A stretch of 64,000 nucleotides of DNA from a bacterium (GTDB lineage: Bacteria; Patescibacteriota; Minisyncoccia; JAUYLV01): assembly GCA_030649025.1 (NCBI GenBank), contig JAUSGO010000028.1:1074-65073 (forward strand), given 5' to 3'. Below are positions 3,194 to 56,659 of this stretch, piece by piece. The notes beneath the pieces were generated by a model. It was not told the origin of the DNA and ran no database searches. It saw nothing but the letters and a program-made list of their open reading frames with translations. Every line of letters starts with the position of its first letter. The first letter of the stretch is position 1. The position numbers and the translations under genes were made by a program.

Positions 3194-5050
3194 TTACACG
3201 CCTGTGTTGCCGAAAAATTTATTTGCAAGTTCCGGCGAGATGAAAAGCTCTTCAATGCGCGACGGCATGATGCGTGCGCCAAGCGTGATAAGCAGAAGCC
3301 CTGTTGCAGCAAGTGCTATCATGAACGAGAGATAGATGCGGTCGAACATGAGGAAGCCCGCCTGCGGAAGTTGCGTATCGGCTGCACCAAGCACCTGGCC
3401 TTCAGTAGAAGCGCCCGCAACGGTCGGCGTAGGCGTGGGAGCTGGCGTCGGGGTTGCGGTTGGTCCGCCGCCGCCTCCGTTGGTTACCGTAACATTTGCT
3501 TGCGCAAGAATGGCCGAGCTATAGAAGGAGCTGGTCACCTGGGCGTTTATGGGATAGGTCCCCGATGAGACGCCGCTGCCCACATTCATGTTGAAGTTGA
3601 ATGATTGCGAAGCGCTCGGAGCAAGAGAAGATATTGTGGGGAAGGTTTGGGAGCCGGAGCTGTCGGCCATTGCCATACGCACGAATGGCAGGACAAACGT
3701 CTTTGCGGTGCCGCCCTCCGGGAAGCTGAAGCCCGCAGGAAGCGTAACCGTAATTATCACGTTGCTGTCAGAAAGGTTTCCGGTATTGTTCACGGTCACC
3801 GTACCCTGGGACTGTCCTCCGGCATTCACCGTTGAAGGATTTGCCGAAAGCGAGAGATTGAGAATGACCGCACTACCGCCTCCTCCACCGCCGCCACAAT
3901 TCGACTGACAACCGGGAGTAGGCGTGGGTGTAGGTTCGGGGGTTGGGGTTGGCTCTGGAGTGGGTTCCGGAGTAGGTTCTGGGGTTGGCTCAGGCGTAGG
4001 AAGAGTATTTACTGAAATATCAACACCGTCGTTGTCGTTGCTGTTATTATTATCAAATTCTGTTGCATCTGCCGAAGCGGTATTGGTTATGGCTTGGCCA
4101 CCAGTTCCGCTGTTGACCGTAACGGTGATGGTTAGAGTTGCAAACACGGTGCTTGCCAGAGAACCCACCGTCCATATACCAGTAGCGCCGTTGTAGCTTC
4201 CCTGGCTGGCGCTTGAAGAAACGTACGTCACGCCGGTTGGCAAAATGTCGGTGACCACAACATTGGTGGAGTTGTCCGGACCACTGTTGGTGACTGTAAC
4301 GGTATACGTTATAGTTTGGCCCTCATCTGGCGTTGCGTCGTCAACCGTTTTGTCGGTTGCAAGATCCGAGATCGACTCATAACATTTGAGATAATCTTGG
4401 TTGTAATTGTTTGAATTTGCCGAGGTTGCGAAGAATTTTGCGGTGTTCAGTGAAATTCCTGACCCCGTAAGCTGGGCTTTGGGAATTGCCCAATCAACAA
4501 AGTATAGACCTCCACCCGCCGAAGTTGCCTGTGCGTGTGTTGAGGCCACATCGCTCCAAAGCAGAGTATCCGCCGGATCATTGAATATCGATGGGCTAAA
4601 GTCTACGGCAGTTACCGCGGGGCTATTCTGCCATATTTCAACCTTGTCATCCTTGCCGTTAAGAGCAAGGAGGTATTGGTAGGCGGGTAAAGTGGTTTGC
4701 ATCAAAACAACCCAGGAATGATTTTTCCAACCGCCTCCATTATCGATAGGATTGCCATTATCGATAGGATTGCCATTAACTCTCTCTCGGAAGTAAAAAT
4801 AACTTGCGTCTTCAGCAAAACCGACCGCAGGATTGCTGGTATCACCAATTAAATCTCTGTGGTCGGTTGGGGGCTCCGCAAGGTCAGTTGAACATTGCGC
4901 CGGCGACGTCCAAGATGTCGGCCAAATTGGAGCCGCTTGGGCCGCCAACGGCACCGACTGAAACACCATAGACATGGTGAAAACCGCCGTGTAGAACGCT
5001 ACGAACGGGCGGATAATCCTGGCCCTCTTTTTTGTCGTGAAATAGTACAT
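3194..5050 (-). CDS. cell-surface protein: signal peptide, DUF11-type conserved repeat domain, PEPT tandem linker, poly-Gly run, C-terminal LPQAG + hydrophobic segment (candidate sortase substrate)
   Basis: 618-aa ORF; TITYTVTVTNSGPDNSTNVVVTDILPTGVTYV (DUF11-like); (PEPT)n; GGGGGGG; C-terminus QLPQAGFLMF...hydrophobic...R. Confidence 0.7.
   Translation of the reverse strand: MYYFTTKKRARIIRPFVAFYTAVFTMSMVFQSVPLAAQAAPIWPTSWTSPAQCSTDLAEPPTDHRDLIGDTSNPAVGFAEDASYFYFRERVNGNPIDNGNPIDNGGGWKNHSWVVLMQTTLPAYQYLLALNGKDDKVEIWQNSPAVTAVDFSPSIFNDPADTLLWSDVASTHAQATSAGGGLYFVDWAIPKAQLTGSGISLNTAKFFATSANSNNYNQDYLKCYESISDLATDKTVDDATPDEGQTITYTVTVTNSGPDNSTNVVVTDILPTGVTYVSSSASQGSYNGATGIWTVGSLASTVFATLTITVTVNSGTGGQAITNTASADATEFDNNNSNDNDGVDISVNTLPTPEPTPEPTPEPTPEPTPTPEPTPTPTPGCQSNCGGGGGGGSAVILNLSLSANPSTVNAGGQSQGTVTVNNTGNLSDSNVIITVTLPAGFSFPEGGTAKTFVLPFVRMAMADSSGSQTFPTISSLAPSASQSFNFNMNVGSGVSSGTYPINAQVTSSFYSSAILAQANVTVTNGGGGGPTATPTPAPTPTPTVAGASTEGQVLGAADTQLPQAGFLMFDRIYLSFMIALAATGLLLITLGARIMPSRIEELFISPELANKFFGNTGV
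3903..4012. repeat. tandem 12-nt repeats encoding [10 protein letters not shown] linker
   Basis: Visible ggttc(t/c)gg(g/a)gt(t/a)gg periodicity; translation (minus) [24 protein letters not shown]. Confidence 0.7.
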
Positions 5051-5243: not shown

Positions 5244-7019
5244 TTATGCCAAGCGGCCGGATTGGAAATGCCGACGGAAACGTCTTTCGCGAAATCTAAT
5301 GATGCTTACTTTCGCAAAAAGCCGGAACTCGGCACGCAAATTATACAGGCCAAGCTGTTTGGCTTTCAGCCATTCTTGAGCGCGAATGCGCATGACGGCT
5401 TTGTGGTACCGGTATTCTGCCGGTATTTCGTCAATGCGATACTTGCGGATAAAAAAGCTCGTGCGGGCCAAAAGTCTTTGCATGCGACTTCGCGCGTTGG
5501 CGACAAAAAGTCCCGCAAAAACCGCAAGCCCGGAAAACGCAACTCCCGCCGGAATTGCCGCAGCAGCAGTACCCGTGCTTATGTCAAAGACGCCAAGCAC
5601 TTGCGGAGTTGGATTGGTTTTTGGAGGATTTGGGATTGCCGCGGTTGACGCGCCAAGCACTTGCGGAGCAGGCACGCATGGAGCGGAAGAGATGCGAAGA
5701 ATGGATGTATCGGATGCGGGAGGGTAGGCATTGCCGAAAAGGAGAGACGCGGTGTTCACCAACGGAGCGGTGTCCGCGGTGAGGCCGGCGGGTATTACTA
5801 CGGAAAACGAAACCGTAAATGAAGAGCCCGGAGTAAGCAAAGGAAGCGCGAGCGAACCGTCTTCCATCGGGTCGGACGATGAGGCGCCATTCAGCATGGT
5901 TGAACCCGGAACGACAATAAGGGGAGACGGAAGAACATCTTGGAGTGTTACGCCGTTGAGGACGTTCGGATTTGCCTGGATGGCGGTGAGAAGGAATTCT
6001 ACGGTCTCGCCGGGAGAAGCCGCGACAACTTCTCCGTAATCAGCCTGATTGCAGGATATATTACGTAGAGCATTGCCAATTCTTGCCGGTGATGCAGTTC
6101 CCCCACCTCCTCCGCCTCCACCACCGCCCCCACCCCCACCTCCACCTCCTCCGCCAGGAGGCGGTGTTGGGGCTGGAGTAGATGTTGGCGTTGGAGTGGG
6201 CTCAGGAGTAGGCGTCGGTGACGGTGTCGGCGTTGGGGTCGGTGTAGGCGTCGGAGTAGGAGTCGGCGTGGGAGTAGGCTCCGGTGTAGGCGATGGAGTT
6301 GGAGACTCTGATGGAGTCGGGGTCGGAGTTGGGGATTCGCTCGGGGTTGGAGTCTGGGTTGGTGTAGGCGTGGGTGAAGGCGTGGGTGAAGGCGTCGGAG
6401 TAGGTGTCGGCTCTGGCGTTGGAGACTCGGACGGTGTTGGGGTAGGTGATGGAGTAGGTGATGGAGTAGGTGTGGGAGTAGGAGTAGGAGTAGGAGTAGG
6501 TTCGGGTGTAGGAGTCGGCGTGGGAGTAGGCTCCGGTGTAGGCGATGGAGTTGGAGACTCTGATGGAGTCGGGGTCGGAGTTGGCGAAGGCGTTGGTGTC
6601 GGGGTGATACCGCAGTTTTGTAGGTCTACTGCCTGGGGATTATGTAAAGAAAGGGTTGTCCCATCAATGGTCACGGTGCCGTCGCTTACGTCGTATATCG
6701 TTGCGCCATATGGCGGGTAATCCAGATAATGCGCAGTATCACCCGTGTGCTTGCTGAACAAAGCCGTGCGCACGGTGCCGTTTAGTCCGTAAGAAACGAA
6801 GCCGTAGTCTGATACGGAATCTGGCAGATGCACAACCACAAAGTGCACTTCAGCGGAGGTGCTTTCCCCGGTGCACTCAACGTGGCTCAAATTAAGCTGC
6901 ATTTCCCGCTCTGCCATTGCCGCAAAGAAAGAAACGAACGAAAACAGGACAACAAAGACGCCGGCCAATACGCGTCTTAAGAAGTTATTGTTTTTGTGAA
7001 AGCCTGTGAAGACATTCAT
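5244..7019 (-). CDS. cell-surface protein with very long Pro/Thr/Ser/Glu repeat linker, 19-residue poly-Gly tract, DUF11-like C-terminal domain and C-terminal hydrophobic anchor
   Basis: 591-aa ORF; signal/TM at N-terminus; [16 protein letters not shown]... repeats; G19; ...[24 protein letters not shown] hydrophobic anchor followed by an unusually long (about 80 aa) basic tail. Confidence 0.65.
6098..6600. repeat. low-complexity coding repeats (poly-Gly then PT/SP dipeptide repeats with a higher-order about 250-bp duplication)
   Basis: ccccc/cctcc runs 6098-6165; gg(a/c/t)gt(a/c/g)gg 6-nt periodicity; near-identical segment ggctccggtgtaggcgatggagttggagactctgatggagtcggggtcggagttgg at about 6279 and about 6530. 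Confidence 0.8.
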
Positions 7020-9733: not shown

Positions 9734-10945
9734 ATGTCGTCTTTCGCATATAAAATCGTCACAAAGGAAAACAAGGTCCTTGAAGGAGAAGTGGATGCGC
9801 CGTCAAAAATAAAAGCCGAAGAAAAGTTCAGGCAGGAGGGTTCAACGGTGCTTTTCGTATCTCCGAAAAAAACATCCTTGTTCGCGAAAGAACTGTCCAT
9901 GCCCTCATTCGGTTTTCCCATCACCGAGCGCATATTTTTTTTCAGGAACCTTGCCACCATGCTCGGCGCAGGCCTTTCCTTGGCAGATGCCATGCGCGTA
10001 TTGGAAGAGCAGGCCAGAAGCAGCGGAGTCAAAAAAGCCATCGTAACGATCATCCATGACGTTGAGAACGGGAGACGGTTTTCGGACGCCATGCGGAAAT
10101 TCCCGAATTTTTTCTCGGATTTTCTTATTGAGGCGATACACGTGGGAGAACTCACGGGGCAGCTTGCCGATACGCTCGATCGCATATCCACGGACCTCGA
10201 GCACGACCACGATTTGCGTCGAAAGGTTCAGGGGGCCATGGCGTATCCATTGGTGGTGCTCACGGTTATGACGGGCGTAGTAATCACGCTTACGGGTTTT
10301 GTTCTGCCGAAGATTGCGGACCTTTTCAAGGAGCTCAATGCGCCGCTCCCAATGCCGACACGAATTCTTCTTGGGGGAAGCGGATTCATCCGCTCCAGTC
10401 CCTTTGCGGTTATAGGCGTCTTTGCGGCGCTGGCCGTAGGACTGTTCTTGCTCTGGAAAAATAAAAAGGGAAGATATTTCATCCATTATGCGTTTTTAAA
10501 AATCCCGGTCTTCGGCGACATGCTAAGGGAATTTAATTTGGCAAGATTTTTCAGGGCTCTTGAATCGCTTTTTGCAAGCGGCATTTCGCTCGTACGTTCC
10601 GTAGAAATCGCCAAAAAAATCCTTAAAAATGACGTATACCGGCAGGCTCTCGATGGCGCGCATCCCATTCTTATACACGGCGCGCCGCTTTCGGACGCGT
10701 TGAAGCTTCATCCGTTTCTTTTTCCTACGCAAACACGGCGCATTATAGAAGTCGGGGAACGCACGGGAAAGCTGGAGGAAATTTTCAGGCGTGTCACCTC
10801 GTATTACGAACGCGCCCTGCATCATAAAACCCAAATGCTCGCCTCGCTCATTGAACCGGTTCTTATTGTATTTATCGGCGTAGTCGTTGGGGGACTCGCG
10901 CTGTCTGTTTTTCTTCCCATTTACCAGGCAACGAGCGTGTTTTAA
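9734..10945 (+). CDS. pilC: type IV pilus inner-membrane platform protein PilC (GspF family)
   Basis: Two GspF-like repeats with conserved ...EVGE(R)TG(K)LEE... motifs and 3 TM blocks; immediately downstream of pilB. Confidence 0.85.
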   Translation: MSSFAYKIVTKENKVLEGEVDAPSKIKAEEKFRQEGSTVLFVSPKKTSLFAKELSMPSFGFPITERIFFFRNLATMLGAGLSLADAMRVLEEQARSSGVKKAIVTIIHDVENGRRFSDAMRKFPNFFSDFLIEAIHVGELTGQLADTLDRISTDLEHDHDLRRKVQGAMAYPLVVLTVMTGVVITLTGFVLPKIADLFKELNAPLPMPTRILLGGSGFIRSSPFAVIGVFAALAVGLFLLWKNKKGRYFIHYAFLKIPVFGDMLREFNLARFFRALESLFASGISLVRSVEIAKKILKNDVYRQALDGAHPILIHGAPLSDALKLHPFLFPTQTRRIIEVGERTGKLEEIFRRVTSYYERALHHKTQMLASLIEPVLIVFIGVVVGGLALSVFLPIYQATSVF

Positions 10946-19601: not shown

Positions 19602-19824
19602 AATTTGATCGCAACTTGTCGAAATAGCCTTATTCTACTTCGGTTCAAAGTTGTCAATCTGGCGGGGACAATGTCTGGAAGTTTGAACCAAAAACATGGC
19701 TCAAATTCAAGGATCTTGATAAAATCATACGCGAACTGCGGGCGATGTTCAAGCAACACCCTCAGTGGTTTGAGGTGCCTAAGCAAAAATCTGACAAAGG
19801 TAAGAATGTGGTTGAATACTCTAT

Positions 19825-21165
19825 TTAGTTAAAGCTCGGATCTTTCTTGAATGCCTTTTGGAGTATGAGTAGTGAGAACAGAACAACGGGCAAAGAGAGA
19901 ATTGCATTTTGAGGGTTGAGTTGATTTGCAAAGAACAAAACAACAATACTCAAAAATCCTAAAACCAAACTCCAAAATACTGCGCGTTGTTTCAGTTTCC
20001 AATAGAGTGATCCAAAAACTACTGGAAATAATGCAAGGTTCAAACTTGCGAGAGAAAAACCAAGAGCTAAAATGTTTTGGTAGAAAATAGCGACGAGAGC
20101 ACCAAGAAGAATGAAAACCACCATGAAAAAGCGAGTAAGCTTTTTCATGGATTCATCGGTATATTTTGCGGAGTAGTTTTTGAGGTCGCGTGTAAAAATG
20201 GAAGAGACAACGAAAGTAACAGTATCCGAAGATGAAAGAGCAACCGCGTAAAGCAAAACCATACCAAACTCCTTTAGTCCGAAAGGAAGCAAATGCGAGA
20301 AACCCGCAACTAAAGCGTCTTCGGGGACAATGTTCGGGAAAAATTGTTTTGTAGCAAGGCCCACAATACTAATTACAACCCCAAGAACTAAAAGTATAAT
20401 AACAGAATAATTTAATCCTCGTTTCAAATTCCTTTCGTCTTTAGTTGCAAAAATTCTTTGCCACAGATCTGGAGCAACCATAATTCCAAAGCCTGCAAGA
20501 ATAAGAAAGCCGATGATGTTGCCAGCTCCAAGTGTTCCGAGATAAAATTCCGAAATTGGAATATGAGTTTTCCCAAGAAAGAAAATCCCAACTGTTAAAG
20601 TCATTATGAACATGATTATCAATTGGAAAAAGTCTGTACGAATTACCGCTTTGAAACCAGCAAGTAAAAGATATGTCAAAACTATCAGTCCACCAATTAC
20701 AACAGCGAGAAAATATGGTATTGGAAAAATGGCCGCTAAAACTTTTCCACTAATTATCAAATTTACCACGAGCAATAAGAAAAACTGAAGTACCAAAAAA
20801 AACGAAAACATAAGGCCATTTTTCTTCCCTAAAATTCTGAAAAAATATTCAGGCATTGAATACACTTTCAGTTCGTCGGCTTTTTGTTTGATTCTTCCAG
20901 CATATTTTTTCAGTAGTAAAAATCCCAAAGCTAAGCCAACAAAAAGCCAAATGGCAGAAAAACCATATTGGTAAATATATGCCAGATAAATTGCCAAAAC
21001 TGAGCCGTCAAAAAAACCTGCGCTCATTGTTGCGGCGACTTGAACGCCTTGAACCTTGCGCTCGGCAATCATAAAATCGTCCTCACTTTCTTTTTTTGAA
21101 GAAACGATACCTATAATCACAACGATTGCTATGTATATAAGAAAAAATATGATCGATAGTGCCAT
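19825..21165 (-). CDS. sodium:solute symporter family (SSS) transporter
   Basis: About 12 TM segments; N-terminal ...AERKVQGVQVAATMSAGFFDGSVLAIYLAYIYQYG... resembles SSF signature; AT-rich. Confidence 0.7.
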   Translation of the reverse strand: MALSIIFFLIYIAIVVIIGIVSSKKESEDDFMIAERKVQGVQVAATMSAGFFDGSVLAIYLAYIYQYGFSAIWLFVGLALGFLLLKKYAGRIKQKADELKVYSMPEYFFRILGKKNGLMFSFFLVLQFFLLLVVNLIISGKVLAAIFPIPYFLAVVIGGLIVLTYLLLAGFKAVIRTDFFQLIIMFIMTLTVGIFFLGKTHIPISEFYLGTLGAGNIIGFLILAGFGIMVAPDLWQRIFATKDERNLKRGLNYSVIILLVLGVVISIVGLATKQFFPNIVPEDALVAGFSHLLPFGLKEFGMVLLYAVALSSSDTVTFVVSSIFTRDLKNYSAKYTDESMKKLTRFFMVVFILLGALVAIFYQNILALGFSLASLNLALFPVVFGSLYWKLKQRAVFWSLVLGFLSIVVLFFANQLNPQNAILSLPVVLFSLLILQKAFKKDPSFN

Positions 21166-21220
21166 AAGTATATTTTAGCTCAAAAAACCCTTATTTTTCT
21201 TGGGTTCTAACTCGGACTTC

Positions 21221-21330
21221 TGGCGGAGGAGGGAGGATTCGAACCTCTTGTTCCTGGGTAGCCAATTATTTTCGAGAAACAAGGAAGCTACCCGCAATAT
21301 GCTTCACTGAAGCATATTGCCCCCTTGCGA
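21221..21330 (-). other. orphan tRNA 3' portion (T-arm GAGG-TTCGAAT-CCTCC, acceptor 3' strand, encoded CCA) fused to structured element copy A; tRNA-Ser-like paralog remnant
   Basis: Reverse complement reads ...GGGTAGC[24-nt loop]GCTACCCAGGAACAAGAGGTTCGAATCCTCCCTCCTCCGCCA; no complementary 5' acceptor strand (GGAGGAG) within 150 nt; the 7-bp stem GGGTAGC/GCTACCC echoes the variable-arm stem AGGGTA/TACCCT of the neighbouring tRNA-Ser. Confidence 0.5.
21253..21330 (-). repeat. tRNA-associated two-hairpin structured element, copy A
   Basis: 12-bp perfect hairpin GCAATATGCTTC-AGT-GAAGCATATTGC plus 7-bp stem GGGTAGC/GCTACCC closing 24-nt loop containing GTTTCTCGAAAATAA; ends CCAGG. Confidence 0.6.
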
Positions 21331-21398
21331 GGACTCTGGTTTTTTCCCGATTTGTCCAAATTTGAAAAAATTTGGCAACAAATCGCAATCCCGTCTCA

Positions 21399-21489
21399 TG
21401 GCGGAGGGGGTGGGATTCGAACCCACGAGGGTATTGCTACCCTGACGGTTTTCAAGACCGTTGCCTTCGACCACTCAGCCACCCCTCCG
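21399..21489 (-). tRNA. tRNA-Ser(UGA), type II with long variable arm, CCA encoded
   Basis: GGAGGGG-TG-GCT-GAGTGGTCGAA-GGC-A-ACGGT-CTTGAAA-ACCGT-[CAGGGTAGCAATACCCTC]-GTGGG-TTCGAAT-CCCAC-CCCCTCC-G-CCA. Confidence 0.85.
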
Positions 21490-21520
21490 CCATAGTACGG
21501 GACAAGACTGACTCGCTCTT

Positions 21521-21600
21521 CCTGGGCAGCCAATCATCTTTAAGAAACAAGGAAACTTGCCCGCAAAATCTGAAGACATTCAGATTTTGCCCACTCCTCC
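21521..21600 (-). repeat. tRNA-associated two-hairpin structured element, copy A' (immediately 5' of tRNA-Ser)
   Basis: 12-bp hairpin GCAAAATCTGAA-TGTC-TTCAGATTTTGC (different sequence, perfect pairing = covariation vs copy A) plus stem GGGCA/TGCCC closing loop with GTTTCTTAAAGATGATT. Confidence 0.6.
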
Positions 21601-21808
21601 CAATGAAATATAAAGAAAGCCGAACTTGTTTTATTCTACTACTACTCGGCCATTAAAAAAAGAGTTTCCGGAACCCGCAGTCCATGTTGAGTAATTTGCT
21701 CATAATCGCATATAAGGGGCTTTGTGAGGCAATCTCATAAGACAAAGGATGTTAAGTCATAAAAAAACTCGCGGAGTGTTTCCGCGAGAAAATCCCTCTA
21801 AGCATTAT

Positions 21809-37820: not shown

Positions 37821-37891
37821 GCGGGCGTAGTATAGTGGTAGTACGTGACCTTCCCAAGGTCAAAGTGTGGGTTCGATTCCCATCGCCCGCT
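37821..37891 (+). tRNA. tRNA-Gly(CCC), CCA not encoded
   Basis: GCGGGCG-TA-GTAT-AGTGGTA-GTAC-G-TGACC-TTCCCAA-GGTCA-AAGT-GTGGG-TTCGATT-CCCAT-CGCCCGC-T. Confidence 0.85.
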
Positions 37892-37912
37892 CATGCGAGG
37901 TTAGTGGAGTGG

Positions 37913-38032
37913 GCTGAATGCTCCAGTGGAGCATTCAGCGGGAGACTGCGGTGTTTCGGAAAAATAAAAGTCTCCCAGGAAGTACGATTGCTTCCCAAGC
38001 AATAAGCACGAGTCCGATTCTCGTATCCCGCT
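37913..38032 (+). other. chimeric tRNA-Gly(CCC)-like paralog: structured element copy D replaces the 5' third; anticodon arm, T-arm and acceptor 3' strand retained with compensatory substitutions
   Basis: GGCTGAATGCTCC-AGTG-GAGCATTCAGC / GGGAGAC[23-nt loop with GTTTCGGAAAAATAA]GTCTCCC / AGGAA / GTAC-G-ATTGC-TTCCCAA-GCAAT-AAGC-ACGAG-TCCGATT-CTCGT-ATCCCGC-T; stems differ from true tRNA-Gly but remain paired. Confidence 0.5.
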
Positions 38033-38045
38033 CACGTTGAGAAGA

Positions 38046-44573: not shown

Positions 44574-44753
44574 ACGTGTTAATTATCTCAAAAATAAAAT
44601 GATTAAAAAATTTTCTTCCCCCAAATCGGGAAACCGTGAATTCGTTTTTACCCCCAAAATTGAATACAAATTAGTCGCCAAGCAAGGCGAACCTTTCAAA
44701 CTTACAATTTCCTTTTTGGTGCCGCGGGAGAGAGTCGAACTCTCATGAGGTTA

Positions 44754-44831
44754 TCCTGGGCGGATTATTATTTTTCAGAAACATCGTAGCCGCCCGCGAC
44801 ATCTGAAATCGTTCAGATGTCGCCCCTCGCA
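44754..44831 (-). repeat. tRNA-associated two-hairpin structured element, copy B
   Basis: 12-bp hairpin GCGACATCTGAA-CGAT-TTCAGATGTCGC; stem GGGCGG/CCGCCC closing 26-nt loop with GTTTCTGAAAAATAATAAT. Confidence 0.6.
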
Positions 44832-44862
44832 GCATTTTGAGTGCTGTGCGTCTGCCATTTTC

Positions 44863-44929
44863 TCCTGGGCGACCGACCATTTTCAAGAAGCATTGTAGTC
44901 GCCCGCGAAATGGTCTCCCAGACCATTTC
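44863..44929 (-). repeat. tRNA-associated two-hairpin structured element, copy C
   Basis: 10-bp hairpin GAAATGGTCT-GGG-AGACCATTTC; stem GGGCGAC/GTCGCCC closing 24-nt loop with GCTTCTTGAAAATGG. Confidence 0.55.
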
Positions 44930-44950
44930 TCCCACCTTGGCGCACCCAAT

Positions 44951-45031
44951 GTGCCCGGGAGAGGAGTCGAACCTCCATGCCTTGCGGCACACGATTTTGA
45001 GTCGTGCGTGTCTGCCATTCCACCACCCGGG
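44951..45031 (-). tRNA. tRNA-Leu(CAA), type II, CCA not encoded
   Basis: GCCCGGG-TG-GTG-GAATGGCAGA-CAC-G-CACGA-CTCAAAA-TCGTG-[TGCCGCAAGGCAT]-GGAGG-TTCGACT-CCTCT-CCCGGGC-A. Confidence 0.8.
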
Positions 45032-45111
45032 CGCTCAAACAGATACGTTTATTCTACTGAATTTTTTCGTATTGTCAAAGCGTGGTTTTCTTGTTACACT
45101 GGGTGAGTCGT

Positions 45112-47004: not shown

Positions 47005-47130
47005 GCTTTTTTCTACCTCATAGCTGTCGGTGCCAATAATACGCTATAGCGCATTATTGGCACCGTACGCTTCGCGCGCAATAAAACTTCAGAAAAAGAA
47101 AATGCCTTCTTACAAAGAAGGCATTTGCGG

Positions 47131-56357: not shown

Positions 56358-56659
56358 TTGCTTCGTCTCCGACGGTGTCGTCGGAGCAACGAACAATAAA
56401 CCCCGCACCAATTCTTTGCAATGACTTTTGCACAACAAGAAGAGAATAGCAGACGATACCGAGGAATCTGGTTATAGCCGCTACGCGCGTATATGTCGGA
56501 ATTTGGCGTGGGGTCTTTTCCAAAATGACATCCTCCCCGGACTCCGCTTCGCTGCGTCCGGGGTTTCCTGGTAAAGAAAAAACGGGCGTCTCGGCGCCCG
56601 TATAGTGTTCGTCCCGTTAGAAGTAGTCCCGCTAAACGGGACGCGACTTTTAGCGGGGT

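Follow-up and report, generated by a model that had tools for sequence, protein, structure and literature searches.

Small palindromic inserts in the tRNA-like genes of a patescibacterial lineage: a probable non-autonomous mobile element

How can a bacterial tRNA-like gene come to hold structured inserts away from its anticodon? This question is raised by a 64,000-nt stretch of contig JAUSGO010000028.1 (the window), from a patescibacterial lineage that, judging by the names on its protein homologs, lies near Sungbacteria. Bacterial tRNA genes are described as strikingly uniform, and their one notable exception is the self-splicing introns beside the anticodon (PMC4033280; PMC13011429). The lineage examined here departs from this rule in that structured inserts of about 70 nt (element E) occupy three other positions of tRNA-like genes, namely the D loop after GG, the linker between the acceptor and D arms, and the variable region. 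The genes that bear E adjoin intact ones, and at the Gly, Leu, and Thr loci the two share one anticodon; moreover, a working tRNA is nested in a broken tRNA-like gene, and a protein accommodates this insert in frame. E represents a new repeat family in the little-studied Patescibacteria, and it is probably a non-autonomous mobile palindromic element, comparable to the Rickettsia palindromic elements (RPEs) and to miniature inverted-repeat transposable elements (MITEs), rather than a tRNA-processing device.

Five copies of E were found within the window, confined to three tRNA loci (Table 1), and the strand of each copy is that of the adjoining tRNA. The element is about 66-70 nt long and has no coding capacity of its own. 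Read 5' to 3', it consists of GG, a hairpin (P2), a second stem (P3), and AGGA. P2 is a perfect hairpin of 10-12 bp with GC at its start and end and a loop of 3-4 nt, often AGT. P3, which follows directly without a spacer, is a 5-7 bp GGG.../...CCC stem (GGG+4 / 4+CCC) enclosing a loop of about 24 nt with a weak TGTTT/AAATA hairpin. The junction motifs GG / GC..GC / GGG..CCC / AGGA are conserved, and the P3 loop is variable and not conserved between genomes. A preceding reading of the Ser locus made from the sequence alone (the sequence-only reading) had described two elements of one architecture there and three more at tRNA-Gly and tRNA-Leu. All five are real copies, the Ser pair being confirmed by both covariance model and folds, and a P3 stem closing its loop is present in each. 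The perfect hairpin with its small loop also stood, whereas the P2 stems, which had been called completely different, turned out to be diverged versions of each other, with GC-AAT--CT-C common to several. Hairpins lie at both ends of E, and their sequences differ among copies. The ends show an inverted GGG...CCC of 3-4 nt with GG at both borders, which is very short for a test of terminal inverted repeats or target duplication. A (T/G)GG directly precedes E in all eight copies detected by the model described below, a motif merely 2-3 nt long.

The covariance model of E was built from five copies, with the Leu_V and SerB copies of the window and a copy in the comEC gene of a relative (L023) excluded from model building, and these three were recovered at 57-63 bits with E values of about 1e-12 to 1e-13. 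The sequence-only reading had named homologs in relatives beforehand as a test of its claim, and the model found three further copies there, giving a total of eight copies in four genomes. Viral contigs preselected by a loose pattern (706 kb) gave no match at E<=0.1, and neither did 121 kb of other loci from the candidate phyla radiation (CPR) at E<=1. With Rfam 15, only three tRNAs of the window reached the gathering score, and permissive scans (E<=10) gave chance-level matches only. A strict sequence pattern retrieved 13 matches from the GTDB species genomes, all of them chance matches without an upstream hairpin, and one genuine locus (L016/L017) from the metagenomes of the Joint Genome Institute (JGI); this pattern is over-specific to the P3 loop of the window genome, so that absence of E elsewhere is not implied. 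A looser pattern run over viral contigs gave chance matches only, all rejected by the covariance model. In addition, synteny walks based on homologs of the TrwB-like, DivIC, and symporter proteins, covering about 20 kb per relative, identified L021 and L023 as the informative relatives, the remaining loci being without E. Literature searches turned up no account of inserts of this kind in the tRNA genes of CPR bacteria.

Covariation was assessed on an alignment of the eight copies against 500 shuffles. Stem positions were paired in 98.0% of cases versus 74% after shuffling, 13 of the 19 base pairs had changed on both sides, and 35 compensatory cells were counted versus 9.5 in the shuffles; none of the 500 shuffles reached the observed value on any measure. 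When the partner strand was slid, pairing fell to 30-46%. Wobble pairs (G-U/U-G) occupied just 2 of the 151 stem cells, and the pairwise identity of the copies was 62-78%, alike within and between genomes. On the basis of the left-out copies, the clean controls, and the shuffle statistics, a recurrent family with covarying stems stands, as had been claimed. One could still suppose that these are chance hairpins, or a simple recent local duplication, under no shared constraint. The sole point for this idea is the presence of two copies within 400 nt, against which stand the eight copies in four genomes, the compensatory pairs never matched by shuffling, the independent detection of left-out copies, and the control DNA without matches. 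Recent duplication, which the sequence-only reading had itself listed as a possible refutation, is countered by the compensatory change, and the detection of the left-out copies together with the shuffle statistics excludes both versions of this idea, whose probability can be put at practically nil.

The relationship between E and its hosts was examined at the Gly and Leu loci. ARAGORN and Rfam reported three tRNAs in the window, Ser(UGA), Gly(CCC), and Leu(CAA). Ordinary complete tRNAs had been considered as an explanation of all the pieces, and ARAGORN called none over the E-bearing genes, neither Gly-like nor Leu-like, with E in place. When E was deleted in silico, from the first P2 base through CCCAGG, a 72-nt tRNA-Gly(ccc) was called at the default threshold, and deletion of both copies from the Leu-like gene yielded an 88-nt tRNA-Leu(caa); each had a full cloverleaf and the same anticodon as the neighbouring working tRNA. 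Because deletion restores these called tRNAs, E is an insertion into tRNA-like genes. Acceptor, D, anticodon (TTCCCAA), and T arms are all present in the Gly-like gene itself. The Leu-like gene, which ends in ACCA and has a T arm and CTCAAAA as its anticodon loop, bears one copy after G10 in the acceptor/D linker (Leu_D) and another in the loop of the variable arm (Leu_V). The stems of both genes are wholly unlike those of their neighbours yet paired, and both genes carry defects: an A-C acceptor mismatch and C55 in the T loop in the former, and two acceptor mismatches in the latter. A retro-copy origin from an encoded CCA was rejected, the Thr (see below) and Leu copies having CCA where their neighbours lack it, the Gly locus of L023 showing the reverse, and the window Gly genes having it in neither. 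As a consequence of the insertions, E-interrupted genes are missed by standard tRNA finders, and assemblies break there.

The Ser locus presents a more complicated arrangement. The T arm, acceptor strand, and CCA at 21221-21248 had been regarded as a piece without a 5' acceptor partner, which is incorrect, as GGAGGAG at 21594-21600 perfectly complements CTCCTCC at 21225-21231. Its layout, GGAGGAG-TG-G-E_SerB, matches GCCAAGG-TG-G-E of the Leu-like gene, and the minimum free energy (MFE) fold of the whole 381-nt stretch pairs the GGAGGAG and CTCCTCC ends. This 7-mer occurs 7 times per 64 kb on the tRNA-Ser strand, a rarity that makes chance placement at exactly this position unlikely. Given the partner, the layout, and the fold, the piece is the predicted 3' end of a tRNA-Ser-like gene that is interrupted several times and surrounds the real tRNA-Ser(UGA). 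In this outer gene, the SerB copy follows GGAGGAG-TG-G in the acceptor/D-arm linker, 5' of the working tRNA-Ser, and the SerA copy lies in the variable region directly 5' of the T arm. Between the two ends come, in order, GTCCC-GTACTAT, the tRNA-Ser(UGA) with a short leader and trailer, GGGAT, an AT-rich hairpin block, CCTC-GCAA-GGGG, the SerA copy, and the T arm, so that the gene is interrupted four times, by two E copies, the AT-rich block, and the working tRNA. When the hairpin block, the two copies of E, and the inner tRNA together with its flanking sequence had been taken out, ARAGORN (default threshold) called a 95-nt class II tRNA-Ser(act); these four deletions were hand-chosen, which makes the reconstruction weaker evidence than those at Gly and Leu. 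A position of one element within the variable arm of a tRNA-Ser paralog, as had been proposed, is supported by the sequence, the fold, and the reconstruction, whereas the GGGTA/TACCC likeness offered in its favour comes down to two bases beyond the universal GGG/CCC.

The AT-rich block of the Ser locus (window 21340-21395, minus strand) reads CGGGATTGCG-hairpin-CGGGAAAA, and a homolog with compensatory stem changes was observed in L023 at about 9860-9915 (minus strand). There it comes after a GTCCC...GGGAT helix that encloses merely a 23-nt hairpin and no tRNA, and two adjacent E-like hairpins lie upstream, at about 10020-10075.

Further host genes were identified in the relatives. L021 is a JGI contig whose TrwB-like protein is 63% identical to that of the window. 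It holds a tRNA-Thr(CGT) and, 2 nt on, a near-identical copy of that gene which begins at position 8 and runs through the 3' end. The copy is missing its 5' acceptor strand, carries E after G18-G19, and has A in place of T20, as does the Gly copy of the window. The sequence after it (AAGTAGCC...) repeats the junction between both copies (AAGTAGCT...), and its origin would fit an ordinary microhomology-mediated tandem duplication. In L023, RecG is 81% identical to that of the window and the order RecG-DivIC-tRNA-Gly is the same. The copy at its Gly locus keeps an AGT-loop hairpin with a different stem sequence, GGAAG, and a strongly shortened P3, and is without the anticodon arm, T-stem pairing, and most of the P3 loop; its last 17 nt are those of the 3' end of the L023 tRNA-Gly. 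These losses imply that the host tRNA-like gene is not conserved. The metagenome contig L016/L017 has one E copy after a CCCCTCC-TTTCAAA-GGAGGGG hairpin, and a SeC(tca)-like tRNA was called there by ARAGORN only at a relaxed threshold and after E deletion.

Several minor features of these loci were also recorded. L017 comes from a soil or peat metagenome; at 4440-4560 (minus strand) its E copy lies in weak tRNA-like sequence with an anticodon stem of 6-7 bp, the TTTCAAA loop corresponding to the anticodon UCA, and the region contains a long low-complexity ORF on the opposite strand and adjoins sufS/sufU. L024 (Logan SRR13727527), which has an identical DivIC gene, stops 44 nt past DivIC, inside the tRNA-Gly locus, and a run of 10 N occurs at L023 8673-8682, inside the P2 hairpin of the Gly-locus copy.

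One copy of E has no tRNA-like host. At L023 2897-2970, comEC contains a sense-strand copy scoring 63 bits. The copy forms part of a 99-nt (33-codon) segment, in frame and free of stops, that is missing from the window ortholog (71% identical) according to protein and DNA alignments. The probability that a random insert would be in frame and stop-free by chance is about 0.07 by our own estimate. Filled in L023 and empty in the window, this site is a single presence/absence case, and it shows that E is gained or lost between relatives. Moreover, the comEC gene of L023 contains a second insert (about 2697-2747), an unrelated 51-nt (17-codon) palindrome that is likewise in frame and absent from the comEC of the window, and this palindrome recurs in the window at 56613-56649 (intergenic) with 95% identity over 37 nt. 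The recurrence implies that small palindromic inserts are active in this lineage, which carries at least two families of such inserts that come and go and can be tolerated by proteins.

These observations bear on a different explanation, in which E is a functional RNA module or intervening sequence and the tRNA-like RNAs that contain it are produced alongside the normal tRNA. E could then be a self-contained expansion kept at tolerated tRNA positions, could be excised, or could be a useful part stabilised and processed by the tRNA body, and these options taken together are considered possible, with perhaps one chance in a few. The explanation draws strength from compensatory change that is strong despite the low identity of the copies, and from junction motifs that are conserved where the P3 loop varies. 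All copies are sense, each between the tRNA promoter and a terminator-like hairpin, and their exact removal leaves good cloverleaves with the anticodon of the neighbouring tRNA. In addition, the Gly-like and Leu-like genes retain paired stems unlike those of their neighbours, and the L023 Gly-locus copy has kept its AGT-loop hairpin through a change of stem sequence. On the other hand, an in-frame, stop-free comEC copy is as expected if E is translated and not removed from the RNA; several host tRNA-like genes are defective, truncated, or decayed, wobble pairs are nearly absent, and the P3 loop is unconserved between genomes. A more specific and still less probable form of this explanation is that E is an RNA-level intervening sequence of bacterial tRNAs, a compact module of two hairpins that invades exposed positions (the D loop, the acceptor/D linker, and the variable loop) and is either kept as an extra segment of working tRNA-like RNAs or removed by a novel bacterial pathway. 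If this is true, E would be the bacterial equivalent of archaeal non-canonical tRNA introns, or the tRNA would naturally serve as scaffold for a small functional RNA.

Comparison with known introns does not favour excision. Non-canonical (bulge-helix-bulge) introns have spread between the tRNA genes of Thermoproteales (PMC4033280), and like E they are related short inserts at several non-anticodon positions, sometimes two per gene, whose removal restores the tRNA. By contrast, the host of E is bacterial, its interrupted genes are redundant beside intact ones, and one copy lies in frame within an ORF. A bulge-helix-bulge intron, which has a 4-bp helix between two 3-nt bulges where exon and intron meet, was rejected on inspection of folds and sequences: no 4-bp helix joins E to the exon, the 5' border abuts P2, and the 3' border comes 3-4 unpaired nt after P3. 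To our knowledge, no splicing endonuclease is known for the host organism. The tRNA group I introns of Patescibacteria are self-splicing and lie in the anticodon loop (35/36 or 37/38) (PMC13011429); they resemble E in occurring in the same phylum and in hiding the tRNA gene from standard finders, and they differ in that E is about 70 nt long, lies outside the anticodon loop, and has no Rfam intron match. With two helices in about 70 nt and no Rfam match even at E<=10, E was rejected as a group I intron, whose catalytic core takes about 100 nt and about 10 helices (PMC4033280). The suggestion of a tRNA intron or processing module, made in the sequence-only reading beside that of a mobile structured insertion, is accordingly not upheld, there being neither bulge-helix-bulge nor group I core, one copy in frame in comEC, and host copies that are defective or decaying; the mobile insertion is supported by the restored tRNAs and by the filled and empty comEC sites. 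The tRNA-derived small RNAs also named in that reading are hypothetical.

Other RNA-level ideas were tried and set aside. The P2 arms have no other match within the window, even at 1 mismatch, and were rejected as guides on that ground. The P3 loop (TTCCT) could pair with the AGGAA tail as a pseudoknot in only 3 of the 8 copies, C/D-box or hammerhead-like motifs are not common to the copies, an outward promoter is present in one copy only, and a two-piece or permuted tmRNA or a tRNA-Sec was reported by neither ARAGORN nor Rfam.

The reading of E as a mobile palindromic element could account for these data as follows. Without a gene of its own, E would be unable to move alone, and would consist of two adjacent hairpins that insert in one orientation, immediately 3' of a GG dinucleotide. 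The surviving copies would be those at harmless sites, that is, spare tRNA-like genes beside or around a working tRNA and a loop of the ComEC protein. The hairpins would be cis-acting signals of the element itself, most likely recognised, in the form of folded single-stranded DNA, by an enzyme whose gene lies elsewhere, as in hairpin-dependent transposons. The mismatches of the Gly and Leu hosts, the Thr copy without its 5' strand, the Ser-like gene broken four times, and the decay of the L023 Gly copy make the host genes look dispensable, and these interrupted copies probably represent redundant or decaying genes and not a processing system. The genes of the window are ordinary chromosomal ones (RecG, DivIC, ParA/ParB, RelA/SpoT, ComEC, type IV pilus). 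As for the features of small mobile repeats, E is short, non-coding, and multicopy (five copies in 64 kb, plus three other genomes), and presence/absence at an orthologous site was found once, in comEC.

Several points weigh against mobility. The high similarity between copies that is expected of recent amplification is absent; the copies are old and about equally diverged, and an identity of 62-78% with almost perfect stems fits long-term selection on structure better than a recent selfish burst. Beyond GGG...CCC, terminal inverted repeats are not evident, and neither is a target-site duplication. Among the 58 ORFs of the window, no transposase (including the Y1 (HUH) type), integrase, or reverse transcriptase was found in the best 25 of 47 Pfam families. 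The presence/absence case is the only one, and the bounds of its segment take in about 25 nt beyond E. Furthermore, every copy whose host gene is known lies in sense orientation, which would be compatible with a role at the RNA level too, and the well-paired, fully different stems of the Gly-like and Leu-like hosts are unexpected for old pseudogenes. E may be used as a test case for whether stem conservation reflects the needs of an element itself or a function of the host RNA.

Among known systems, the closest parallels are small palindromic repeats. RPEs are gene-less palindromic repeats of 100-150 nt in a bacterium with a reduced genome, and they also occur in non-protein-coding DNA. Within ORFs they are said to be in frame, free of stops, and absent from orthologs, as Ogata and colleagues reportedly described in 2000 and 2002. 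By this description E is likewise short, palindromic, and gene-less, in a reduced-genome host and both in and outside ORFs, and the in-frame, stop-free insertion absent from the ortholog is what was seen in the comEC of L023. E differs in its length (about 70 nt), in the host phylum, and in that most copies lie at defined tRNA-like loop positions, and its copies are highly diverged with perfectly paired stems. MITEs, palindrome-associated transposable elements (PATEs), and repetitive extragenic palindromic (REP) elements are, like E, small, multicopy, non-autonomous, and built of hairpins, while the copy identity of E is far below that of typical MITE bursts. The near absence of wobble pairs, with stems almost wholly Watson-Crick, the lack of long terminal inverted repeats, and insertion in one orientation beside a short motif (GG) would give E a resemblance to IS200/IS605-type elements. 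Unlike the derivatives of those elements (PATEs), E has no partner transposase in the window ORF families (best 25 of 47), and its hairpin sequences vary where transposase-recognised hairpins are normally conserved. Overall, E resembles RPEs and MITEs in behaviour and is distinct from them in its tRNA-loop sites, low copy identity, and strict structural conservation.

A further explanation arises from the surroundings of the Ser locus, namely that gene cassettes integrating site-specifically at tRNA 3' ends left duplicated tRNA segments, so that the tRNA-like pieces and the hairpins would be scars, with E forming part of the recombination sites. Integrase attachment sites are reportedly located at tRNA 3' ends, a point credited to Williams in 2002, and the Ser locus resembles such sites in having partial tRNA duplicates beside horizontally moved DNA, with a symporter cassette at the CCA of the Ser-like gene. 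The segment at 19656-21230, which carries the symporter gene, matches contigs of other CPR lineages at about 90% DNA identity, and its boundary falls within the 3' acceptor strand and CCA of the Ser-like gene. Elsewhere the cassette is flanked by direct repeats of about 190 bp with an end like that of a tRNA 3' end, and the 17 nt of the tRNA-Gly 3' end repeated downstream in L023 could be understood in the same way. However, the positions of E are internal to tRNA bodies (D loop, linker, variable loop) and not at cassette borders, E occurs within comEC as well, and the symporter cassette of other genomes is without it. A duplicate may also span the whole tRNA, as the Gly-like and Leu-like genes are complete tRNAs and not 3' fragments, no integrase or cargo lies between a working tRNA and its copy, and no integrase was found among the window ORF families (best 25 of 47). 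This explanation is regarded as improbable.

The 1.6-kb symporter segment itself has the appearance of a cassette that was exchanged recently and entered the Ser-like gene at its CCA end, which marks the Ser locus as a hot spot for incoming DNA. Its gene (19825-21165) encodes a sodium:solute symporter with 96-97% protein identity to genes of Nomurabacteria, Vogelbacteria, and other CPR members and about 80% identity to DPANN archaeal genes. In L025, the direct repeats of the segment lie at 3781-3967 and 5341-5527.

Table 1. Copies of element E, working tRNAs, and parts of tRNA-like genes in the window, with the basis of each assignment
Feature	Position	Strand	Basis
E_SerB	21518-21592	-	covariance-model match 57.1 bits, E 3e-12, copy outside model; fold; sequence
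E_SerA	21250-21322	-	covariance-model match 92.1 bits; fold; sequence
E_Gly (Gly_D)	37911-37982	+	covariance-model match 80.8 bits
E_Leu_D	44861-44933	-	covariance-model match 85.1 bits
E_Leu_V	44752-44825	-	covariance-model match 60.6 bits; copy outside model
Working tRNA-Gly(CCC)	37821-37892	+	ARAGORN; Rfam
tRNA-Gly(CCC)-like gene, D loop interrupted by E_Gly after G18-G19	37895-38033	+	ARAGORN after E deletion
Working tRNA-Leu(CAA)	44951-45032	-	ARAGORN; Rfam; strong sigma-70-type promoter upstream, 45051-45078
tRNA-Leu(CAA)-like gene with E_Leu_D and E_Leu_V	44717-44941	-	ARAGORN after deletion of both E copies
Working tRNA-Ser(UGA), nested between the halves of the outer gene	21399-21488	-	ARAGORN; Rfam tRNA 59.5 bits
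Outer tRNA-Ser-like gene, putative 5' acceptor strand (GGAGGAG) with T8-G9-G10	21591-21600	-	7-bp complement; MFE fold of the locus
GTCCC plus GTACTAT, 5' half of an anticodon-stem-like helix and 7-nt loop	21492-21503	-	sequence; ARAGORN on the reconstruction
GGGAT, 3' half of the GTCCC helix, downstream of the inner tRNA-Ser	21388-21392	-	sequence; fold; reconstruction
AT-rich block with 8+8 bp hairpin, further insert in the outer gene	21348-21385	-	sequence; fold; homolog in L023
CCTC-GCAA-GGGG, small variable-arm-like hairpin directly 5' of E_SerA	21321-21332	-	sequence; fold
T arm AGAGG-TTCGAAT-CCTCC, 3' acceptor CTCCTCC, discriminator G, CCA	21221-21248	-	sequence; fold; reconstruction

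Two other palindromic sequences were noted. Upstream of comEC in L023, at 2380-2460, a block of about 80 nt contains two GC-rich hairpins, CTGACCCGC-GGA-GCGGGTCAG and CCAGGGC-TTG-CCCTGG, with the flanks GGTTAATACCCC / GGGGTTTAATACCC; no second copy was found among the loci compared, and the block may be a third small palindromic element. In the window, a 38-nt near-perfect palindrome (CGGTGCCAATAATACGCTATAGCGCATTATTGGCACCG) at 47028-47065 lies between the convergent genes parB and relA/spoT and may be a two-way terminator or a protein-binding site.

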